Part shown: positions 1 to 6,720 of the stretch, piece by piece
How positions within the stretch are numbered: position 1 is the stretch's first letter
Layout of the letters: every line of letters begins with the position of its first letter
DNA from: a virus
Lineage: Duplodnaviria > Heunggongvirae > Uroviricota > Caudoviricetes
Direction: 5' to 3' (one strand)
IMG/VR virus record: IMGVR_UViG_2519899564_000011
Location: 1-8,372 of that record
DNA length: 8,372 nucleotides
The notes under the pieces: generated by a model
What the model was told of the DNA's origin: nothing
Seen by the model: the letters and a program-made list of their open reading frames with translations, nothing else
Databases searched by the model: none
Position numbers and translations under genes: made by a program

Positions 1-27
1 ATCACTCTCCATCGATGATTTTTTGGG

Positions 28-210
28 TTACCAATAATATTTGATAGTCGCCATAATTATCGGTAGCAACGCGCAGACAACTGAAAACCGTAAAACAAAA
101 CCTACTCCCAATATGCGATATCCATTATTCCAGAGAACAAAACTCATCATCAGAAGGAATCCATGAAAAATCGCGACAAGAAATAAACTACAAATAAATG
201 CATTTACCAT
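28..210 (-). CDS. small hydrophobic protein (60 aa, two predicted TM segments), hypothetical
   Basis: ATG at 210; GAGGGG about 10 nt upstream on the minus strand; product is mostly hydrophobic; AT-rich. No recognisable family. Confidence 0.3.
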   Translation of the reverse strand: MVNAFICSLFLVAIFHGFLLMMSFVLWNNGYRILGVGFVLRFSVVCALLPIIMATIKYYW

Positions 211-269
211 CGGTACTTACCCCTCGCTCTTAATCCAATAAAAAAGGGTTTGCTTCACTGAACACTCCT

Positions 270-455
270 TTATTTTTTATGCCTGTAACCCCATTCTTCC
301 AGCAACCTTGCGGCGTACCACCCAAGAAACAAAGGAAAGAACATTACAATGAGATATTCCCCGCCACGGTCAATGTTCGAAATTGACCAGATTACGATGT
401 AACCAGTGCAGGACAGGAATATTACAAACCCCAAAAAGCTACTTCTTCGACTCAT
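270..455 (-). CDS. small hydrophobic protein (about 61 aa), hypothetical
   Basis: The ORF track starts at a GTG at 461; I prefer the ATG at 455, which has AAGGAG 5 nt upstream. Two hydrophobic stretches. No recognisable family. Confidence 0.35.
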   Translation of the reverse strand: MSRRSSFLGFVIFLSCTGYIVIWSISNIDRGGEYLIVMFFPLFLGWYAARLLEEWGYRHKK

Positions 456-465
456 GCTCACTCCT

Positions 466-681
466 TCACTTTAAATCCAGACTCCGGATTATTCTGTTGC
501 GCTGAAACTCATTGTTGAGTTTGAACAACCGTCGAAGGACACGGTCACGCGGATAGCGTCGTGCAGCAGGTGAATGCTCATACAACTCATCAATCGGCAA
601 ACTGGACGATGAACGATACCGATACCAACGCACCAACTCTTCACGAAAATTAGCCCTGACAAGCTCAGCTATCGTACTCAT
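466..681 (-). CDS. hypothetical protein, nin-region position downstream of the replication genes
   Basis: ATG at 681 with GGAGG 9 nt upstream on the minus strand; 71 aa, basic, Arg-rich; lies immediately after a terminator-like hairpin that follows the helicase gene. Confidence 0.45.
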   Translation of the reverse strand: MSTIAELVRANFREELVRWYRYRSSSSLPIDELYEHSPAARRYPRDRVLRRLFKLNNEFQRNRIIRSLDLK

Positions 682-710
682 TTCTTAAAGCCTCCAATTC
701 CCTCTCCCCC

Positions 711-742
711 AAATAAAAAGGCCTGCGATTACCAGCAGGCCT
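711..742 (-). terminator. intrinsic terminator after the helicase gene (tR2-like position)
   Basis: Inverted repeat AGGCCTGC (719-726) / GCAGGCCT (735-742) with an 8-nt loop; on the minus strand it is followed by TTTTTATTT (revcomp of 710-718). Confidence 0.5.
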
Positions 743-767
743 GTTATTAGCTCAGTGATGTAGATGG

Positions 768-2144
768 TCATACGTCAGCCCCTTGTGCATATCGTCTGCC
801 ACGCGAAGCAGGTGCATTTGATGCTGTGCAAATCTGTCTGGCTTCATCCTGGTCACATGCAACAAAGTGTCCGTTACAGAACCGCTGGTAAACCGTACCA
901 AGTGGGCCAAACCGGTTTTTCGTCACAATGATTTCAGCAAATGGTGCGGCGCTACTGTTCTCGTCATATACCGCTTCCCGATAGAGCATGATGATTGAGT
1001 CTGCGTCCTGCTCAATGCTTCCTGAATCACGCAAATCTGCGTTTGTCGGGCGTTTGTTTGGTCGCTTCTCAACATCGCGCGAAAGCTGACTTAGGGAGAT
1101 AACAGGCGTTTTCAGGTCTTTCGCCATCGCCTTCAGGCTTCCTGAGATGTGAGCAATTGCGAGGTCGTTGCGGTCTGCTTTCGGCTTCTCAATCAGGCCA
1201 AGATAATCCGCCATGATGAGTGACAGGTTTGGATTTTCCTGTTTGTTCCGCTCTGCGATTGAGCGAATTTCTTCTACCGATAACCGCGAGGCATCGACTA
1301 CCCATACATCCAAATCTGCAAGCTGACTCATGCCGTTAGCAACACGCGCCCAGCCTTCGTCATCCATCGATGCAGGATTTCGCAGTACGCTAACCGACAT
1401 CCTCCCGGCGTTGGCAATGCTCCGCTCTGCAATCTGCAATGCGCTCATTTCCATCGAGAAAATCAACACTCCGCGCCGGACGTCAGAACCAGGAATAACG
1501 CGGCTTGCAACACCTTCGGCAATCTTCAGCGCCAGTTCGGTTTTCCCCATACCAGGACGAGCGGCGATAATCACCAGGTCTTCCGCGTTCATCCCTCCGG
1601 TGATGGCGTCAAGTTCTTCGATTCCGGTCTTCAGGGTATCTGACTCTTCTCCGTTCCTCAGACGCCTGTCAAGCGTGTCAGTGTAGTCAGTGATGATTTC
1701 CCCTAACCGTACAGGTTTAACCTCGTCACGGGGCTTTCTGATGGCTGAGAGACGCTTTACAAGCTCGTCCATCGCCTGACTCGATGTATCGATGGTTCCG
1801 CTCTGAATTGGTTCACGCATTTCGTCCATGATTTCCAGCACCAGACGGCGGTGATAGTTATCCGCGACCATTCCGGCATATCCCTTCAGGTTTGCGGCAC
1901 TCGGGCAGTTTTTGCTGGTCATCAGGATTGACGTGAAATGCTCCTCTCCGCACGCCTCGGCAACCATCAGCGCGTCGATTAGGTTTCTGTTTCTCGCCTG
2001 CTTACGGATAACTTCGAAGGCTTTCCGGTAGAGCGGAATTGAAAACGCTTCCGGCTCCAGCGTTGCCAGAACGTCGCTGGCGGTTGGTGTTAATCCACCA
2101 ATCAGCAAGCCACCGATAACGCTCGCTTCGATATCCTGTCTCAT
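768..2144 (-). CDS. replicative DNA helicase, DnaB family (phage P22 gene 12-like, lambda P position)
   Basis: 458-aa ORF; Walker A motif ARPGMGKT; DnaB-like N-terminal domain and RecA-fold C-terminal region; start codon overlaps the upstream O-like stop (ATGA at 2141-2144). Confidence 0.9.
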
Positions 2145-2962
2145 GCAATCCCCCTGTCTGCAAACTTCCCTTCCCGAACTCCCGTTAACGAGTCTTCCCT
2201 CAGCAGGTAATCAAAATCTGCCGTCCAGCCCGTGTCGTTGTCTCCGAAGTAAAACGGCTTGGCCTGATGCACAAACGCCCTGACATACGCTCTGAAACCG
2301 TCCACGTTTGGCGTTTTCAGTTGCGGGATGATTTTCTTCAGGCGGCGTTTTCGTTTCTCGTTGACCGCAACAGCGTGTGGAAGTCTGTCACCGACTTCGG
2401 TGTTGTAGGCGTTCAGGAAGGATTCGTAGTCGATTCGTTCTGCCTTGCGACGTTCAGGTTTAACCTGCCCATCGCCGCCCCCGTTAGGGGGTAAGGGGGT
2501 ATTTGTATTTATTGTCTTTTGTATATTGTCTTTTGTGTTTAGCTGACTTGGCTTATACCCATTAGCCGACTCGGCTAATGTTTTATTAGCTGTTTTAGCT
2601 AATGTTAAGCTGTCCTGGCTAATCCACTGAGAAACCACCTTGTTCACTCCGATTTTCACGCCATCAGCAATGAGGAATTTACGCTCAATAAGCTGGCGCT
2701 TGGCAGCGCAAACATGAGTGTGATGAATACCTGTCATGGCTGCTATCTGCGTGTTTGTGAGTCGATCCATCGGCTTATTGAATCCGTATGTCTTGCGCAT
2801 GATAGCGAGCATCACCTTCATCTGCCGGACGGTTAAATCAGCCATCAGCAGACTGTCGATAATCTCGTTAGCAACGCGCATGAAACCATCTTCGGTATCT
2901 GCCACGCGATGCTCCACGACCTCCAGTTGAGGCCTGTAATCAGCTAACTTAACGACGCCCAT
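2141..2962 (-). CDS. replication initiation protein, lambda O-like
   Basis: 273 aa; N-terminal region ([31 protein letters not shown]) resembles lambda O as I recall it (LTKRQFKVLLAILRKTYGWNKPMDRITDSQL); an iteron array and AT-rich tract sit inside the gene as in lambda ori. Confidence 0.85.
2497..2623 (-). repeat. origin of replication inside the O-like gene: four iterons plus AT-rich tract
   Basis: Four roughly 19-bp repeats with internal dyad symmetry TTAGC-N7-GCTAA at about 2538-2556, 2561-2579, 2585-2603 and 2603-2622; adjacent AT-rich tract 2497-2540 containing ATTGTCTTTTGT twice; GC hairpin CCCCCGTTAGGGGG at 2476-2489. Confidence 0.6.
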
Positions 2963-3110
2963 GTTTCACTCCTGCTTTGGCTAGTCTGTAAACACCAACA
3001 AGGCGCTCTGCGAACGCCCTGTTATTTGCTGCGGCTACCACTAATCCCTCAGGTGAATCAGGGTGTCGAATCTCTTCTTTTTCCTGGTATTTCTTACGAC
3101 GTTTTGTCAT
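2949..3110 (-). CDS. small basic hypothetical protein (53 aa) between cII and O
   Basis: Not in the ORF track (under 60 aa). ATG at 3110 with AGGAG 5-6 nt upstream on the minus strand; product [53 protein letters not shown]; stop overlaps the O-like start. Confidence 0.35.
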   Translation of the reverse strand: MTKRRKKYQEKEEIRHPDSPEGLVVAAANNRAFAERLVGVYRLAKAGVKHGRR

Positions 3111-3145
3111 AATTACTCCTGTGGATTGATACAGTCTTTCTACAA

Positions 3146-3424
3146 TCAGGCCTCAAAACTGTTGCCGCAGTCTTGAGGCTTTTCTTTTGTCAGCACCATG
3201 GCTACTTTCTTTGCCAGCTCCGCTAATTCCTCGTCTTCAACACCCCACTCCAGCACAGCCAGAAGCATGGCCATCTTTGGGATAAAGCTGTCTTTCCATC
3301 GCGAAATTTGCGATTCATTGATCCCTAATGCATCAGCAACCTTTCGCTGACCACGTACAGCAATTCGATTCAGGATGTTGCTTGTAATTGCATTCGCTTT
3401 CTTGCGAGTACTTGTAAGTTCCAT
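3146..3424 (-). CDS. cII: transcriptional activator CII
   Basis: From the ATG at 3424 (AAGGAAA about 9 nt upstream) the product contains GINESQISRWKDSFIPKMAMLLAVLEWGV, close to lambda CII as I recall it (GVDKSQISRWKRDWIPKFSMLLAVLEWGV). The ORF-track start at 3511 is rejected because it runs through nutR. Confidence 0.85.
   Translation of the reverse strand: MELTSTRKKANAITSNILNRIAVRGQRKVADALGINESQISRWKDSFIPKMAMLLAVLEWGVEDEELAELAKKVAMVLTKEKPQDCGNSFEA
3148..3189 (+). terminator. plus-strand intrinsic terminator antisense to the cII 3' end (oop-RNA-like)
   Basis: Stem GCCTCAA (3150-3156) / TTGAGGC (3173-3179) followed by TTTTCTTTTG (3180-3189) on the plus strand, while cII is on the minus strand ending at 3146. 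Confidence 0.5.
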
Positions 3425-3481
3425 ATGTAAGTATTTCCTTAACAAATAAGAAGTTATGCGCATCAACTTATGCGCGTTGTA

Positions 3482-3526
3482 TTCCCGCATTTCGGCGGGA
3501 ATGAGGACCATGACTGTTAAAGAGCG
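3482..3526 (-). promoter_or_regulatory. nutR (boxA plus boxB) between cro and cII
   Basis: Minus-strand CGCTCTTTAACA (revcomp of 3515-3526) matches the boxA consensus; minus-strand TCCCGCCGAAATGCGGGAA (revcomp of 3482-3500) is a 5-6 bp stem-loop and is identical to the boxB candidate at 5223-5241. Confidence 0.7.
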
Positions 3527-3533
3527 GTGTTAC

Positions 3534-3758
3534 TTATGCTGCCTGATTCGGTTTTGGAAACAGGTGTGGCAAATCGGGGCGAATTTCGTAAGCCTTGATC
3601 TGCCCTCCAGTGGCGTTAACGATGGCGGTAACTTTCTCTGGAGAGACCAACCCGCCTTTCAGCCATTTGTGTACTGCTGGCTGCGTTACACCACACTTGT
3701 CGGCAAGGCGCTTTTGGCTACCGACAATTTTCAAGGCTCGTTGAATTACTAAATTCAT
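3534..3758 (-). CDS. cro: Cro-like HTH repressor
   Basis: First gene leftward from the operator region, divergent from cI; HTH-like segment GSQKRLADKCGVTQPAVHKWLK; preferred start ATG at 3758 has AGAGGT 6 nt upstream, whereas the ORF-track start at 3779 has no SD. Confidence 0.7.
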   Translation of the reverse strand: MNLVIQRALKIVGSQKRLADKCGVTQPAVHKWLKGGLVSPEKVTAIVNATGGQIKAYEIRPDLPHLFPKPNQAA

Positions 3759-3789
3759 GAGCATACCTCTTGTGGTCATTACTTATAAC

Positions 3790-3860
3790 CAAAGATAACT
3801 CAAGTTATAAAAAATAGCAATAACCTTTGTTATTTTACTTTGGATAACCGTAGTTATAGA
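3790..3860. promoter_or_regulatory. OR operator region with divergent promoters (PR leftward, PRM rightward)
   Basis: Three 14-bp palindromes ATAAC-N4-GTTAT at 3795-3808, 3820-3833 and 3844-3857, spaced about 24-25 bp. Candidate PR on the minus strand: -35 TTGCTA (3820-3815), 17-bp spacer, -10 TATCTT (3797-3792). Confidence 0.65.
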
Positions 3861-3869
3861 TTTGTGGGT

Positions 3870-4577
3870 ATGAAAACATTCGCAGAAAGACTAAATGCAG
3901 CCATGAGCTCAGCAGGGGTATCACAATCACAGCTTGCTGACATGGTTGGAATATCTCAGCCAGCCATACAGAAGATGTCGTCCGGTAAAACAAACGGATC
4001 TCGCAAGATGGTTGAATTAGCCAATGCTTTAAAAGTGCGCCCTGAATGGCTTAGTTCTGGTATTGGTGAAATGAGGGATGGTGCACATGAAGAACCATCC
4101 AATGTCCGTGATTCATCTTTAAAAGCTGTGGTATGGGAAGACATTAAAAGAAACGATGACGAGTTTGTTGCGTTGCCTCTTCTTAACGTTTCGCTTTCAG
4201 CTGGAAGCGGTAGCTGCGAGCTAGAGGAATCATCGGAGTTCTCTTTGGTTTTCAGAAAGCACTATCTGAAAAAGATGGGAGTATCTGAAAGATCAGCCAA
4301 GCTAGTTAGGGTTGTAGGGCAAAGCATGGAACCAACGCTTCACGATGGCGATGTTGTTGGTGTTAACACGCAAGATACCACAATCAGAGATGGTAAAACC
4401 TACGCTATTTGCCAGTCTGATTTGTTACGAGTAAAAACATTAATCGCCACCCCTACATCGGTGATAATCAGATCAATAAATCGCGAAGAGTACCCGGATG
4501 AAGTAATGGATAGAGATGAATTTCATGAAACCGTAAGGATTATTGGCAGAGTATTCTGGTCGTCTCATAGTTGGTAA
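3870..4577 (+). CDS. cI: CI repressor (N-terminal HTH, C-terminal S24 LexA-like autopeptidase domain)
   Basis: HTH region QSQLADMVGISQPAIQKM; Ala-Gly candidate cleavage site in LSAGSG; Ser in GQSMEP and Lys in LRVKT fit the LexA/cI catalytic dyad. ATG at 3870 preferred over the ORF-track TTG at 3840, which lies inside an operator. Confidence 0.85.
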   Translation: MKTFAERLNAAMSSAGVSQSQLADMVGISQPAIQKMSSGKTNGSRKMVELANALKVRPEWLSSGIGEMRDGAHEEPSNVRDSSLKAVVWEDIKRNDDEFVALPLLNVSLSAGSGSCELEESSEFSLVFRKHYLKKMGVSERSAKLVRVVGQSMEPTLHDGDVVGVNTQDTTIRDGKTYAICQSDLLRVKTLIATPTSVIIRSINREEYPDEVMDRDEFHETVRIIGRVFWSSHSW

Positions 4578-4617
4578 CCGATAATCAGAAGAAGACTTAC
4601 GGAAGTGCGGAGGGATA

Positions 4618-4914
4618 ATGGAATTTCTGATAGTTTTTGTTGTTGTTTTGGTCATCATTCTTTTTGTTTTGCTAAGCATTAGTAAAAAGCTATCTCAAAT
4701 GATTGAACATAGCTCTAATCGTGCAAAAGAAGAAGAGCATATAATTGATATAAAAGAGATTCTCTCTGATATAAAAATCACATTAGATGAAATAAAATAC
4801 ACAACAGATCTAATTGAACAGTATAAAATACCAACCCCAAACGAGAGAAAAGCAATAGATCAATATCGTATTGACTTAGAAATCGACGAAATGCTAAGCA
4901 AAAGAAAAGACTAA
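4618..4914 (+). CDS. hypothetical single-pass membrane protein in the rex position (cI-linked moron)
   Basis: ATG at 4618 with GGAGGG 5 nt upstream; 98 aa with an N-terminal hydrophobic helix (LIVFVVVLVIILFVLLSI) and a charged helical C-terminal region; strongly AT-rich; about 40 nt after the cI stop and followed by a strong terminator. Confidence 0.55.
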   Translation: MEFLIVFVVVLVIILFVLLSISKKLSQMIEHSSNRAKEEEHIIDIKEILSDIKITLDEIKYTTDLIEQYKIPTPNERKAIDQYRIDLEIDEMLSKRKD

Positions 4915-4919
4915 AAACA

Positions 4920-4946
4920 CCCGGCCTCAGCGCCGGGTTTTCTTTT
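4920..4946 (+). terminator. intrinsic terminator ending the cI-moron transcript
   Basis: GC-rich stem CCCGGC (4920-4925) / GCCGGG (4932-4937) followed by TTTTCTTTTCC. Confidence 0.7.
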
Positions 4947-5067
4947 CCTGCCGTTCACCACCCAATCAACCATCCTCATCATAGACAAGCATCAAGCCAA
5001 AGGTAACACCTTCACCCCGCACGCAAGCCCTCAAACACCAATCAATCAGCAACATTTACAAAAATAA

Positions 5068-5153
5068 AATACCTTTGTTATCCATCACTTATAACCTATT
5101 CACCATAAAATATAAATTAGGTTATTGACCACACCTATAACCTAAGTTATCTT
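5068..5153 (+). promoter_or_regulatory. OL operators and PL promoter
   Basis: ATAACCTAAGTTAT (5137-5150) is a perfect match to the OR palindrome; ATAAATTAGGTTAT (5112-5125) has one mismatch; a degenerate copy sits at 5068-5081. Candidate PL: -35 TTGACC (5125-5130), 17-bp spacer, -10 TATCTT (5148-5153), the same -10 hexamer as the PR candidate. Confidence 0.6.
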
Positions 5154-5199
5154 TAAGCCATCAGCAGGACGCTGGAAGCCAAACGGAACAGATTGGCAG

Positions 5200-5241
5200 G
5201 CTCTTTAACATTGATGGGATTGTCCCGCCGAAATGCGGGAA
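5200..5241 (+). promoter_or_regulatory. nutL (boxA plus boxB)
   Basis: GCTCTTTAACA (5200-5210) matches boxA; TCCCGCCGAAATGCGGGAA (5223-5241) is a stem-loop identical to the nutR boxB; located between PL and N. Confidence 0.7.
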
Positions 5242-5347
5242 CCAAAGAGTAGTTGGCTTTGGGGTGACGTGAAGTGCAGCTGCAAGACGGCAACCGGAAG
5301 ATAAGCACGCGGCGCGTCACCGCCAAAGTCAATCATCGGAGGTCAAC

Positions 5348-5620
5348 ATGACAGTAGTCATTACATATCTGGCTGACGATAACGCCAGAAATCGCCGCAG
5401 AGCACGCAGACAGGCTCAACGTGAACAGGCAATGCAAGAACAGCGATTGGCACGAAAAATTGCGCTAAAGCTCTCTGGTTGCGTCAGAGCAGATAAAGCA
5501 GCATCACTCGGAAGCCTTCGCTGCAAGAAGGCAGATGAATGCAGTGGAAGTATTTGCCTGCCAAACGTAGCCATTTACGCGGCAGGCTACCGGAAATCAA
5601 AACAACTGACGGCGAGGTAA
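5348..5620 (+). CDS. N: antitermination protein N (P22 gp24-like)
   Basis: First gene after PL/nutL; GGAGG 5 nt upstream of the ATG; N-terminal arginine-rich motif NARNRRRARRQAQREQ; C-terminal LPNVAIYAAGYRKSKQLTAR resembles the P22 gene 24 product as I recall it. Confidence 0.8.
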   Translation: MTVVITYLADDNARNRRRARRQAQREQAMQEQRLARKIALKLSGCVRADKAASLGSLRCKKADECSGSICLPNVAIYAAGYRKSKQLTAR

Positions 5621-5622
5621 TT

Positions 5623-5802
5623 ATGGGTCAGGAAGAAAAATATGAGCTTAAAAAGCTCATTGGAGAAGACGCCATAGAAGAAATTGCAGCATTAACAACA
5701 GCTATAAAGAATATTAGGTATGCGCTAAATACGCTTATCTCCTCATGCGACAAAAATAGCAGGGAATTTTTTGATACTTGGCGCAGCTCTAGGAATAGTT
5801 GA
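5623..5802 (+). CDS. small hypothetical protein (59 aa)
   Basis: ATG at 5623 sits 2 nt after the N stop, with GAGG 5 nt upstream. The ORF-track version (5539) starts inside N and is probably over-extended. No recognisable family. Confidence 0.4.
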   Translation: MGQEEKYELKKLIGEDAIEEIAALTTAIKNIRYALNTLISSCDKNSREFFDTWRSSRNS

Positions 5803-5986
5803 TGCGGCAACGCTTCACCTAATTACTCATGACGATATTCTTATTGAGCCGTATGAAACATTACTGCTTGTCAGGCAAAAAATGGCTGATGCCGCAGCAA
5901 ATGGAGACCTTCAACTTTACATCGACTTAAGGAAAGTATTAAGGCGAATGGTCAAAACTGAAGGAGATATCCCCCTGACAAAGTAA
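5771..5986 (+). CDS. small hypothetical protein (TTG start; alternative ATG at 5879)
   Basis: The ORF-track start is TTG with AGGGAA 4-5 nt upstream; the only in-frame ATG is at 5879. AT-rich; start uncertain. Confidence 0.3.
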   Translation: MILGAALGIVDAATLHLITHDDILIEPYETLLLVRQKMADAAANGDLQLYIDLRKVLRRMVKTEGDIPLTK

Positions 5987-6016
5987 GGGGGTGAAGAGGC
6001 CATTTCAGGAATAAAA

Positions 6017-6511
6017 TTAATAATTTGTCAGCGGCGGTACATATACAGGCTTAGGGTCTGGCGCTCTATACATCCGGTATTCATTCTTACAGCGAGGACA
6101 TGAATGCACAAAGAACCCATTAGATTTTATAGTAACCGTGCTTGGTTGAAGTATCGATATTTTATGTTCGCCGAAGCAATGTGCACAAAGGTTATGCTGC
6201 TGAATAGAAGGATCGGAATGACTCTTAGGTCGATACACGACAGAACCACCTTCAGTTGTATGAAGTTCATAATTCTCAGCTTGCACAACAAACATCTTGA
6301 TTTTTCTATTTTCATCTCGAAGCTTCATTGCGATCTCCTTCTCGGCCTGATAAAGGCCAGAGAGCTCCGCATTAAGCATCTGTAAGTCAGTTATTCTTTG
6401 GTGTAGATCACCAATAGCTTTAGCGATAACAGCATCGTCTCTGGTTTCTTTTATTGTCTTCAGCAGATCATAAGCCTGTTTCGCGGCAGTTATACCAGAT
6501 AACACATCCAT
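6017..6511 (-). CDS. hypothetical coiled-coil plus C-terminal zinc-ribbon protein, antisense to the PL operon
   Basis: 164 aa, ATG at 6511; N-terminal half is heptad-like and charged; C-terminal CAHC...(26 aa)...CPRC pair looks like a zinc ribbon; AT-rich; the only minus-strand gene in the early-left region, with a repeat-rich upstream region. Confidence 0.6.
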   Translation of the reverse strand: MDVLSGITAAKQAYDLLKTIKETRDDAVIAKAIGDLHQRITDLQMLNAELSGLYQAEKEIAMKLRDENRKIKMFVVQAENYELHTTEGGSVVYRPKSHSDPSIQQHNLCAHCFGEHKISILQPSTVTIKSNGFFVHSCPRCKNEYRMYRAPDPKPVYVPPLTNY

Positions 6512-6720
6512 ATAAATTACTCTCTTACTGTAGGGGTAAGAGGATTTTACTATTTTTCTCGCTGTAGGGGTACACGAGAACCACCGAGCCTGATGTGGTT
6601 AAAAGACAGGCATACGAATAAACACTGCACTGTGTATTCATTCCAACGAGTGAATACACGGAGCAATGTCGCTCGTAACTAAACAGGAGCCGACTTGTTC
6701 TGATTATTGGAAATCTTCTT

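Follow-up and report, generated by a model that had tools for sequence, protein, structure and literature searches.

We examined an 8,372-nucleotide (nt) stretch of DNA from a Caudoviricetes virus (positions 1 to 8,372 of IMG/VR record IMGVR_UViG_2519899564_000011; hereafter the window), focusing on a 98-amino-acid (aa) open reading frame (ORF) directly downstream of the cI-type repressor gene. Based on ORF calls and matches to PHROGs and Pfam, the window is the lambdoid immunity and early region of a prophage of the H-19B/Stx1 type (Shiga-toxin type). Its sole match among 50,697 phage records, at 100% identity, is the unannotated Stx1a-converting phage Stx1a_10051. The cI gene is annotated as an XRE family regulator in 163 Escherichia coli genomes. 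The operator motif of this immunity type, ATAAC-N4-GTTAT, occurs three times at OR, with spacings of 25 and 24 base pairs (bp), and twice at OL (Table 1). Since these operators flank the cI–ORF pair, the ORF is located inside the immunity region, in the rex position. The promoters PL and PR are both directed away from it, so that only transcripts from the repressor promoters can cover it. Upstream of cI is the hexamer TAGATT, which resembles the lambda PRM −10 element; its position suggests that the cI transcript may be leaderless, as in lambda.

A conserved gene downstream of cI

The 98-aa ORF is a real gene under purifying selection. It matches the phrog_18389 profile over its full length (E = 6.4e-62, residues 1–98 of 98), and comparison with a 77%-identical homolog from a Citrobacter freundii prophage gives a nonsynonymous divergence (dN) of 0.13 and a synonymous divergence (dS) of 0.84, or a dN/dS of 0.15. 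Constraint is unevenly distributed along the protein, with a dN/dS of 0.067 for residues 44–98, 0.22 for the linker and 0.28 for the transmembrane (TM) helix. The first-pass annotation of this DNA had described an ORF with a strong Shine–Dalgarno (SD) sequence, starting 40 nt after the cI stop codon (4577) on the same strand, closed by a strong intrinsic terminator and more AT-rich than its neighbors, and each of these statements holds. The SD sequence is GGAGGG (4609–4614), and GC content is 0.293 for the ORF as compared with 0.434 for cI and 0.502 for N. The terminator has a 7-bp stem with six GC pairs, followed by TTTTCTTTT to about position 4946; its hairpin has a free energy of −13.7 kcal/mol (z = −3.2 relative to shuffled sequences), and in a terminator scan the hairpin at 4919–4938 was the sole terminator-like site from the start of cI to N. 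While the annotation of the ORF as merely 'hypothetical' and its absence from almost all sequenced phages (found in 1 of 50,697 records) could point to a chance ORF in AT-rich spacer DNA, this explanation is effectively refuted by the low dN/dS at saturated synonymous change, by full-length homologs that keep the same architecture down to about 25–35% identity, by the rarity of open frames of at least 98 codons in shuffles of positions 4578–4950 (51 of 20,000), and by the strong SD sequence and conserved terminator.

Table 1. Features of the window, with positions, strand and the evidence on which each is based
Feature	Positions	Strand	Basis
DnaB-like helicase	768–2144	−	Profile matches
O	2141–2962	−	Profile matches
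cII	3146–3511	−	Profile matches
cro	3534–3779	−	Profile matches
OR operators between cro and cI: three exact ATAAC-N4-GTTAT palindromes, 14 bp	3795–3808, 3820–3833, 3844–3857		Pattern search
PRM-like −10 hexamer TAGATT, 7 nt upstream of the cI ATG	3857–3862	+	Sequence
cI-type repressor, 235 aa, HTH_3 + Peptidase_S24	3870–4577	+	Pfam/PHROGs
cI-to-ORF spacer, 40 nt, SD GGAGGG at 4609–4614, terminator-free	4578–4617	+	Sequence, terminator scan
Portable, conserved cassette: ribosome-binding site (RBS), ORF and terminator	4608–4941	+	DNA comparison
98-aa ORF, ATG start, phrog_18389, WP_000394868.1 in strain H19	4618–4914	+	ORF call, profile match
Predicted TM anchor, residues 3–21	4624–4680	+	Hydrophobicity, family alignment
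Predicted helical stalk, residues 22–69	4681–4824	+	Alignment, AlphaFold2, heptad pattern
Conserved, predicted cytoplasmic domain, residues 44–94: helix, kink at K-[IL]-P, helix	4747–4899	+	Alignment, AlphaFold2
Intrinsic terminator, stem 4919–4938 then T-run	4919–4946	+	Terminator scan, folding
C-rich, G-poor spacer, C 39%, G 9%	4942–5059	+	Composition
OL operators: 5112–5125 (one mismatch) and 5137–5150 (exact)	5112–5150		Pattern search
PL-like promoter TTGACC-17-TATCTT, overlapped by OL operators	5125–5153	+	Promoter scan
N-type antiterminator, 90 aa, first gene of the PL operon	5348–5620	+	PHROGs, Pfam

The phrog_18389 family is small. Among 5.8 billion proteins it forms 11 clusters (90% identity), drawn from E. 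coli and Citrobacter, and an exhaustive profile search of 1.84 billion proteins gave 14 representatives at 50% identity. Members are 94–126 aa long and share one architecture: a hydrophobic helix at the N-terminus is joined by a variable, helical linker to a conserved motif at the C-terminus, approximately IKY[TV]TD[LI]IEKYK[IL]PxxxERxx[IL]DxxxxDxEI (19-member alignment), in which Y69, P72, D81 and E88 are invariant. The ORF is found in 99 of 5,426 complete E. coli genomes (about 2%), where it is always chromosomal, always annotated as 'hypothetical protein' and always adjoins an XRE-family regulator. Many of these carriers are O26:H11 Shiga toxin-producing E. coli (STEC), and strain H19, the source of phage H-19B, encodes identical cI and ORF products (WP_000394868.1 for the latter). 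No mention of this accession was found in the literature searched, and the ORF is not described in the H-19B literature that was reached, which excluded the original H-19B sequence papers.

A few more distant members occur outside this setting. One is from Pelagicoccus, a Verrucomicrobium (P0025), one lies downstream of a SHOCT-domain protein (P0023) and one downstream of an NtrC-type sigma-54 activator (P0022). A profile scan of GTDB representative genomes gave no match, and neither did viral contigs when searched with P0018, the most distant member; a broad alignment of the family (A2) was too divergent for pattern scanning.

Repressor linkage and cargo exchange

In all 38 loci first collected, a same-strand ORF of 219–244 aa ends 1–40 nt upstream of the homolog, and two further loci (L042 and L046) have the same arrangement. 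The upstream genes of the window and of loci L002, L004, L036, L037, L038 and L046 carry the Pfam domains HTH_3 and Peptidase_S24, and all enterobacterial loci examined have the homolog behind a co-oriented repressor of this type. At least seven distinct repressors are represented. The window's cI is only 22% identical to the repressors of L002 and L004 and 37% identical to that of L036, while the three Cro proteins compared are unrelated to each other, as are the N proteins. The first-pass annotation had placed the ORF in the rex slot, and this is borne out by the Citrobacter prophage L002: its repressor is 78% identical to lambda cI, and the homolog there thus replaces rexA-rexB.

Comparison of the window with the heteroimmune loci L002 and L004 revealed a single stretch of common DNA in the region (4608–4941, 81% nucleotide identity). 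This 334-bp cassette extends from the RBS to the end of the terminator, which has been kept together with the ORF in heteroimmune phages, and it begins 10 nt before the ATG, leaving no promoter-sized upstream sequence. A terminator scan found no terminator-like site between cI and the ORF, and a consensus scan, which a weak promoter could escape, found no promoter-like site in the 40-nt spacer; the gap between repressor and homolog is only 1 nt in L038 and L042. As the cassette brings no promoter and no terminator-like site separates cI from the ORF, co-transcription of the ORF with cI is strongly implied. The earlier proposal that the two are expressed together in the lysogen is strengthened to the same degree by the recurrence of a promoter-less mobile unit on the same strand behind at least seven repressors, at gaps of 1–40 nt.

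The slot itself is variable. In O145 prophages that have a 79%-identical cI, similarity to the window is lost from the cI stop codon (4577) and picks up again at 5060, in the OL/PL region; a convergent 69-aa ORF lies in the interval. Where a strain has the same Cro and a 97–99% identical cI, the slot contains unrelated cargo on the same strand as cI, either a pair of genes for 120-aa and 42-aa proteins or genes for a DUF3024 protein and a 173-aa protein, with a homology breakpoint at window position 4579. Phages HK97, HK544 and HF4s have yet other same-strand genes there. Because prophages of the same immunity carry unrelated genes at this site, the slot can be regarded as a cargo bay. The GC content of the homologs (0.29–0.36) also departs from that of their loci (0.45–0.49; L002, L004, L036 and L038 included). 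With its deviant GC content and breakpoints at the cI stop codon, the ORF behaves as horizontally acquired cargo. In E. coli 3CM, an IS3-family element is inserted in the 5′ part of the gene (L040 4451–5679), leaving a 75-aa remnant with a replaced N-terminus (P0010); this natural knockout indicates that the gene is dispensable for prophage maintenance.

Small convergent ORFs of 68–75 aa also occur in the cI–N slot, both with and without the 98-aa gene (L002 6324–6530, L004 6324–6548, L046 4733–4960 and L039 4361–4570, all on the minus strand). The L002 and L039 ORFs match separate families, phrog_3975 and phrog_3946, neither with an assigned function. We considered these ORFs as a possible partner gene and rejected them, because they fall into different PHROGs and are absent from the window.

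The cI–N interval has been described as a mosaic hotspot containing abortive-infection systems such as rexAB of lambda and bstA of BTP1, which are thought to share the repressor promoter (PMC8585504). Our cargo-bay findings match this description. The first-pass annotation had called the ORF a moron, a term whose definition includes an own promoter (PMC3594210, citing Juhala et al. 2000). Three features agree with that label, namely the deviant composition, the own terminator and the insertion between genes that are adjacent in related phages (homology breaks at 4577–4579 and resumes at 5060), but an own promoter is lacking, given that the cassette starts 10 nt before the ATG. Like rexAB and bstA, the ORF would therefore more aptly be termed cargo of the repressor operon that brings no promoter. 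Repressor-linked prophage cargo is an already known type of element, to which this ORF belongs; the protein itself is uncharacterized.

Predicted protein and candidate role

The protein has a single hydrophobic segment at residues 3–21 (Kyte–Doolittle mean of 3.67), which contains no polar or charged residues. In all 19 aligned members, lysine and arginine are absent before this segment, while 1–4 are present in the 15 residues that follow it. From this distribution, the positive-inside rule predicts an N-out/C-in topology with about two residues outside. The tail contains 14 K/R and 18 D/E residues for a net charge of −4. The proximal part of the stalk (to about residue 43) is variable, and residues 42–69 show a heptad pattern, with hydrophobic residues at seven of eight a/d positions. 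AlphaFold2 models from two alignments (predicted local distance difference test, pLDDT, of 82.5 and 77.8) contain a long helix to residue 68–69, a break at K-I-P-T-P and a second helix at residues 74–97; their predicted template modeling (pTM) score of 0.29–0.30 is low, which leaves the mutual arrangement of the helices undefined. A single N-terminal TM helix with a charged helical tail had been noted before and stands, though that description overlooked the sharply conserved motif within the tail (residues 44–94).

The first-pass annotation had looked to homology and structure searches to place the protein. These recovered the full-length phrog_18389 family but led to no family of known function and no fold relative. 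In PADLOC-DB v2.0.0, whose coverage does not extend to systems described after 2023, the only hit was ZorB3 (E = 0.017), over the TM helix, which we consider noise. Sub-threshold matches to DUF5385, ZorB3, MscL and STM3941 were likewise driven by the TM helix and rejected as compositional, as were the only hits of a PDB profile search, to designed coiled coils and sodium-channel helices. The heptads, together with that match to designed coiled coils, are nevertheless consistent with an oligomerizing stalk. Taken together, the ORF very probably encodes a lysogen-expressed, cI-cotranscribed, N-out/C-in protein that tethers a cytoplasmic coiled coil to the membrane.

Based on these observations, we propose that the ORF is an accessory gene expressed in the lysogen, sitting between cI and OL/PL in the variable cargo slot of a lambdoid prophage. 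It would be read as the second gene of the repressor transcript, from PRM in the lysogen and from PRE at establishment, with the transcript ending at the hairpin at 4919–4946. The plain hydrophobic N-terminal anchor would insert the protein into the inner membrane, and a coiled-coil stalk, probably oligomeric, would extend into the cytoplasm and present the helix–kink–helix module (IKYTTDLIExYK[IL]P...ER..ID....D.EI) at the cytoplasmic face of the membrane. Acting alone, the product would exclude other phages or abort their infections, with its module binding at that face either a component of the host inner membrane that phages use to bring in their genome or a phage protein that is incoming or made early. 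We take the TM helix to be an anchor that localizes the protein and not a channel or pore, since it lacks polar residues and purifying selection acts most strongly on the cytoplasmic module. The predicted cytoplasmic location of the conserved part also argues against an exclusion protein that faces the periplasm or blocks a receptor. An anti-phage role at the cytoplasmic face of the inner membrane is our best single guess, with a probability of roughly 0.45, drawn from position and analogy. In its favor, the rex-slot position is kept behind at least seven repressors with unrelated Cro and N proteins, and a proven exclusion protein, HK97 gp15, shares the architecture.

We compared the ORF to five named systems. 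RexA/RexB are encoded in the same slot: the genes follow cI immediately, share its strand, precede OL/PL and end at a terminator. The expression logic is presumably the same, and both systems have a membrane component. The location after cI in the immunity region is common to both, but Rex consists of a 278-aa cytoplasmic sensor, RexA, and RexB, a membrane-anchored ion channel according to its Pfam description, whereas the ORF encodes one 98-aa protein with one plain anchor helix and no second same-strand gene lies between it and the terminator. Homology to RexA/RexB was tested and rejected (BLASTP E = 0.55 versus RexA and 23 versus RexB), and the Pfam RexA and RexB models detect the lambda proteins but not the ORF. 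BstA of the Salmonella prophage BTP1 is likewise encoded downstream of the repressor, presumably expressed from its promoter and followed by an own Rho-independent terminator, and its synteny is conserved across diverse prophages (PMC8585504). In contrast to the ORF product, a small membrane protein without similarity to any PADLOC model, BstA localizes to phage DNA replication sites and has a DNA-based self-immunity element, aba (PMC8585504).

HK97 gp15 is a YebO-like moron product, a prophage-expressed inner-membrane superinfection exclusion protein that blocks genome entry (PMC3594210). Its layout is the same: the N-terminus is acidic, the one N-terminal TM helix is followed by basic residues, and the helical tail is charged. 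Both are small proteins of lambdoid coliphages with deviant composition and an own terminator. They differ in that gp15 is encoded in the tail operon under its own promoter while the ORF would ride on the cI transcript, and in that the ORF has an extra conserved C-terminal module. A homologous relationship was rejected: the hhalign probability was 4.6%, the Pfam YebO model matches gp15 and not the ORF, and a pairwise BLASTP match (E = 0.005) covers only the hydrophobic helix and proximal tail. On these comparisons gp15 is the closest analog in form, not a homolog. AbiP of Lactococcus and PdpSau of Staphylococcus aureus prophages also combine, in a single protein, an N-terminal membrane anchor with a cytoplasmic domain and cause abortive infection, with PdpSau being prophage-encoded (PMC10127798). 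Their domains resemble the OB fold, carry positive charge and are linked to nucleic-acid binding (PMC10127798), whereas that of the ORF is acidic (−4) and all-helical. Finally, the inner-membrane protein SieA of P22 is expressed from the prophage and keeps superinfecting DNA from entering (PMC10883804, PMC11436027); no relationship to it was detectable in PHROGs, Pfam or PADLOC, although no direct pairwise comparison was made.

Several points weigh against an anti-phage role. Homology searches lend it no support: Pfam, NCBIfam and PADLOC gave no match above noise, and neither PDB nor BFVD contained a fold relative. The cytoplasmic domain, being acidic and all-helical, offers no clue to an enzymatic activity or to nucleic-acid binding. 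Nor need all cargo of the cI–N slot be defensive. The proposal also builds on presumed co-transcription with cI, and a weak promoter-like site (9 of 12 matches) is present in the 3′ end of cI at 4543–4571, outside the cassette. The most distant members (from Pelagicoccus and metagenomic contigs) are not found beside repressors or recognizable phage or defense genes, albeit on short contigs, and their neighbors gave no PADLOC match and no phage-specific PHROG, only an acetyltransferase and families of unassigned function. These non-phage contexts imply that the ancestral role of the module may be unrelated to phages. It may have a cellular, non-phage target, which the phage copy exploits otherwise, although evidence for this is thin.

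The next reading, to which we give a clearly lower probability, is that of a host-fitness (lysogenic conversion) factor, in which the tethered module modulates an inner-membrane transporter, protease or signaling component of the host. The expression logic and cargo behavior fit it equally well, and a conserved cellular target is suggested by the distant homologs near an NtrC-type activator, near a SHOCT protein and in a Verrucomicrobium. Morons are also known to carry many non-defense functions (PMC3594210). However, the conserved part is predicted to be cytoplasmic, which is at odds with surface action like that of Lom or Bor, there is no similarity to any characterized regulator, and the two residents of the slot known best, rexAB and bstA, both act by abortive infection (PMC8585504).

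It is unlikely that the protein serves the lysis–lysogeny control of the phage itself, by stabilizing lysogeny or tuning induction (for example, via a membrane protease such as FtsH, like lambda CIII). The gene is always tightly linked to the repressor in lambdoid loci, in some with a 1-nt gap and apparent translational coupling, and lambda biology would predict its expression during both establishment and maintenance; a membrane-tethered cytoplasmic helix is also loosely like other small membrane-associated modulators. Such a role is difficult to reconcile, however, with same-immunity prophages that lack the gene or carry unrelated cargo, with the persistence of an IS-disrupted copy in a genome and with the foreign, AT-rich composition. 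Movement of the gene between unrelated sets of repressor, Cro and N further argues against co-adaptation with one switch.

More improbable still is a membrane-toxic peptide, acting as a prophage addiction or stabilization element or as a stand-alone holin-like effector: a small single-pass membrane protein with a predicted oligomerizing stalk could be so read, and RexB-type logic involves membrane depolarization (PMC8585504), but the TM helix is entirely hydrophobic, selection is strongest on the cytoplasmic module (dN/dS of 0.067 versus 0.28 for the TM helix), the window contains neither an antitoxin gene nor an Rfam RNA, and constitutive expression with cI would be intolerable for a free toxin. 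Our ranking of the functional readings thus runs from the anti-phage role through host fitness and control of the phage's own switch to a toxin or addiction element. A more detailed version of the anti-phage reading, which we hold to be doubtful as a whole, would make the protein a minimal one-protein counterpart of Rex: a tethered coiled-coil oligomer whose YK[IL]P...ER..ID module senses or blocks an infecting phage on the cytoplasmic side of the membrane, with a fold unrelated to known superinfection exclusion and abortive-infection proteins, and whose rare non-phage homologs, as far as Verrucomicrobia, would mark an older cellular membrane-tethered module captured by lambdoid phages into their repressor operon.

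Other features of the window and significance

The 118-nt spacer after the terminator (4942–5059) is part of the segment missing from the O145 relative. It has a GC skew of about −0.5 and a composition like that of Rho-utilization sites, and it could back up termination ahead of OL/PL or be a leftover of other cargo. An Rfam scan of the window found no RNA family at gathering thresholds; as background, an anti-phage small RNA, svsR, is reported to be encoded at the 3′ end of cI in the lambdoid prophage NC-SV (2026; PMC12803456).

Downstream of N, two overlapping ORFs of 87 and 71 aa (5539–5802 and 5771–5986, plus strand) match two halves of phrog_7374 (profile positions 1–50 and 50–120), and strain H19 has a 120-aa coding sequence annotated at the corresponding position (L041 5754–6116). 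The post-N gene of the window looks frameshifted, whether as a pseudogene, through an error in sequencing or by programmed frameshifting. An antisense ORF of 164 aa (6017–6511, minus strand; phrog_1244, function unassigned) within the rightward PL operon combines a coiled-coil N-terminal half with a C-terminal CxxC...CxxC zinc-ribbon-like motif. It has no Pfam or PADLOC match and is also present in strain H19 (WP_000382838.1); its reversed orientation suggests an accessory gene with independent expression. Further along, a 286-aa protein (6869–7729, plus strand; phrog_1376 and phrog_21365, function unassigned) contains a very long, highly charged helical repeat region rich in E, A, K and R. 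At a similar position of the PL operon, phage HF4s encodes a 323-aa (969-nt) protein annotated as a coiled-coil 'antitoxin, similar to phi80 Agt'. At the other end of the window, downstream of the replication genes in a nin-like region, ORFs of 63 and 60 aa (270–461 and 28–210, both minus strand) contain hydrophobic, membrane-like segments and have no NCBIfam or PADLOC family match.

The 98-aa gene is part of the immunity region in Stx1-converting prophages of O26:H11 STEC, among them that of strain H19, from which the classic phage H-19B came. If the protein excludes phages, it would influence the range of phages able to infect these pathogens, other Stx phages and therapeutic phages included, and a very small protein with a new fold would join the repressor-linked defenses rexAB and bstA. 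The 334-bp promoter-less cassette would then also be a clean example of cargo swapping at the cI stop codon. Even if its function proves to be non-defensive, the gene would still encode a conserved, probably lysogen-expressed membrane protein in a medically relevant prophage.

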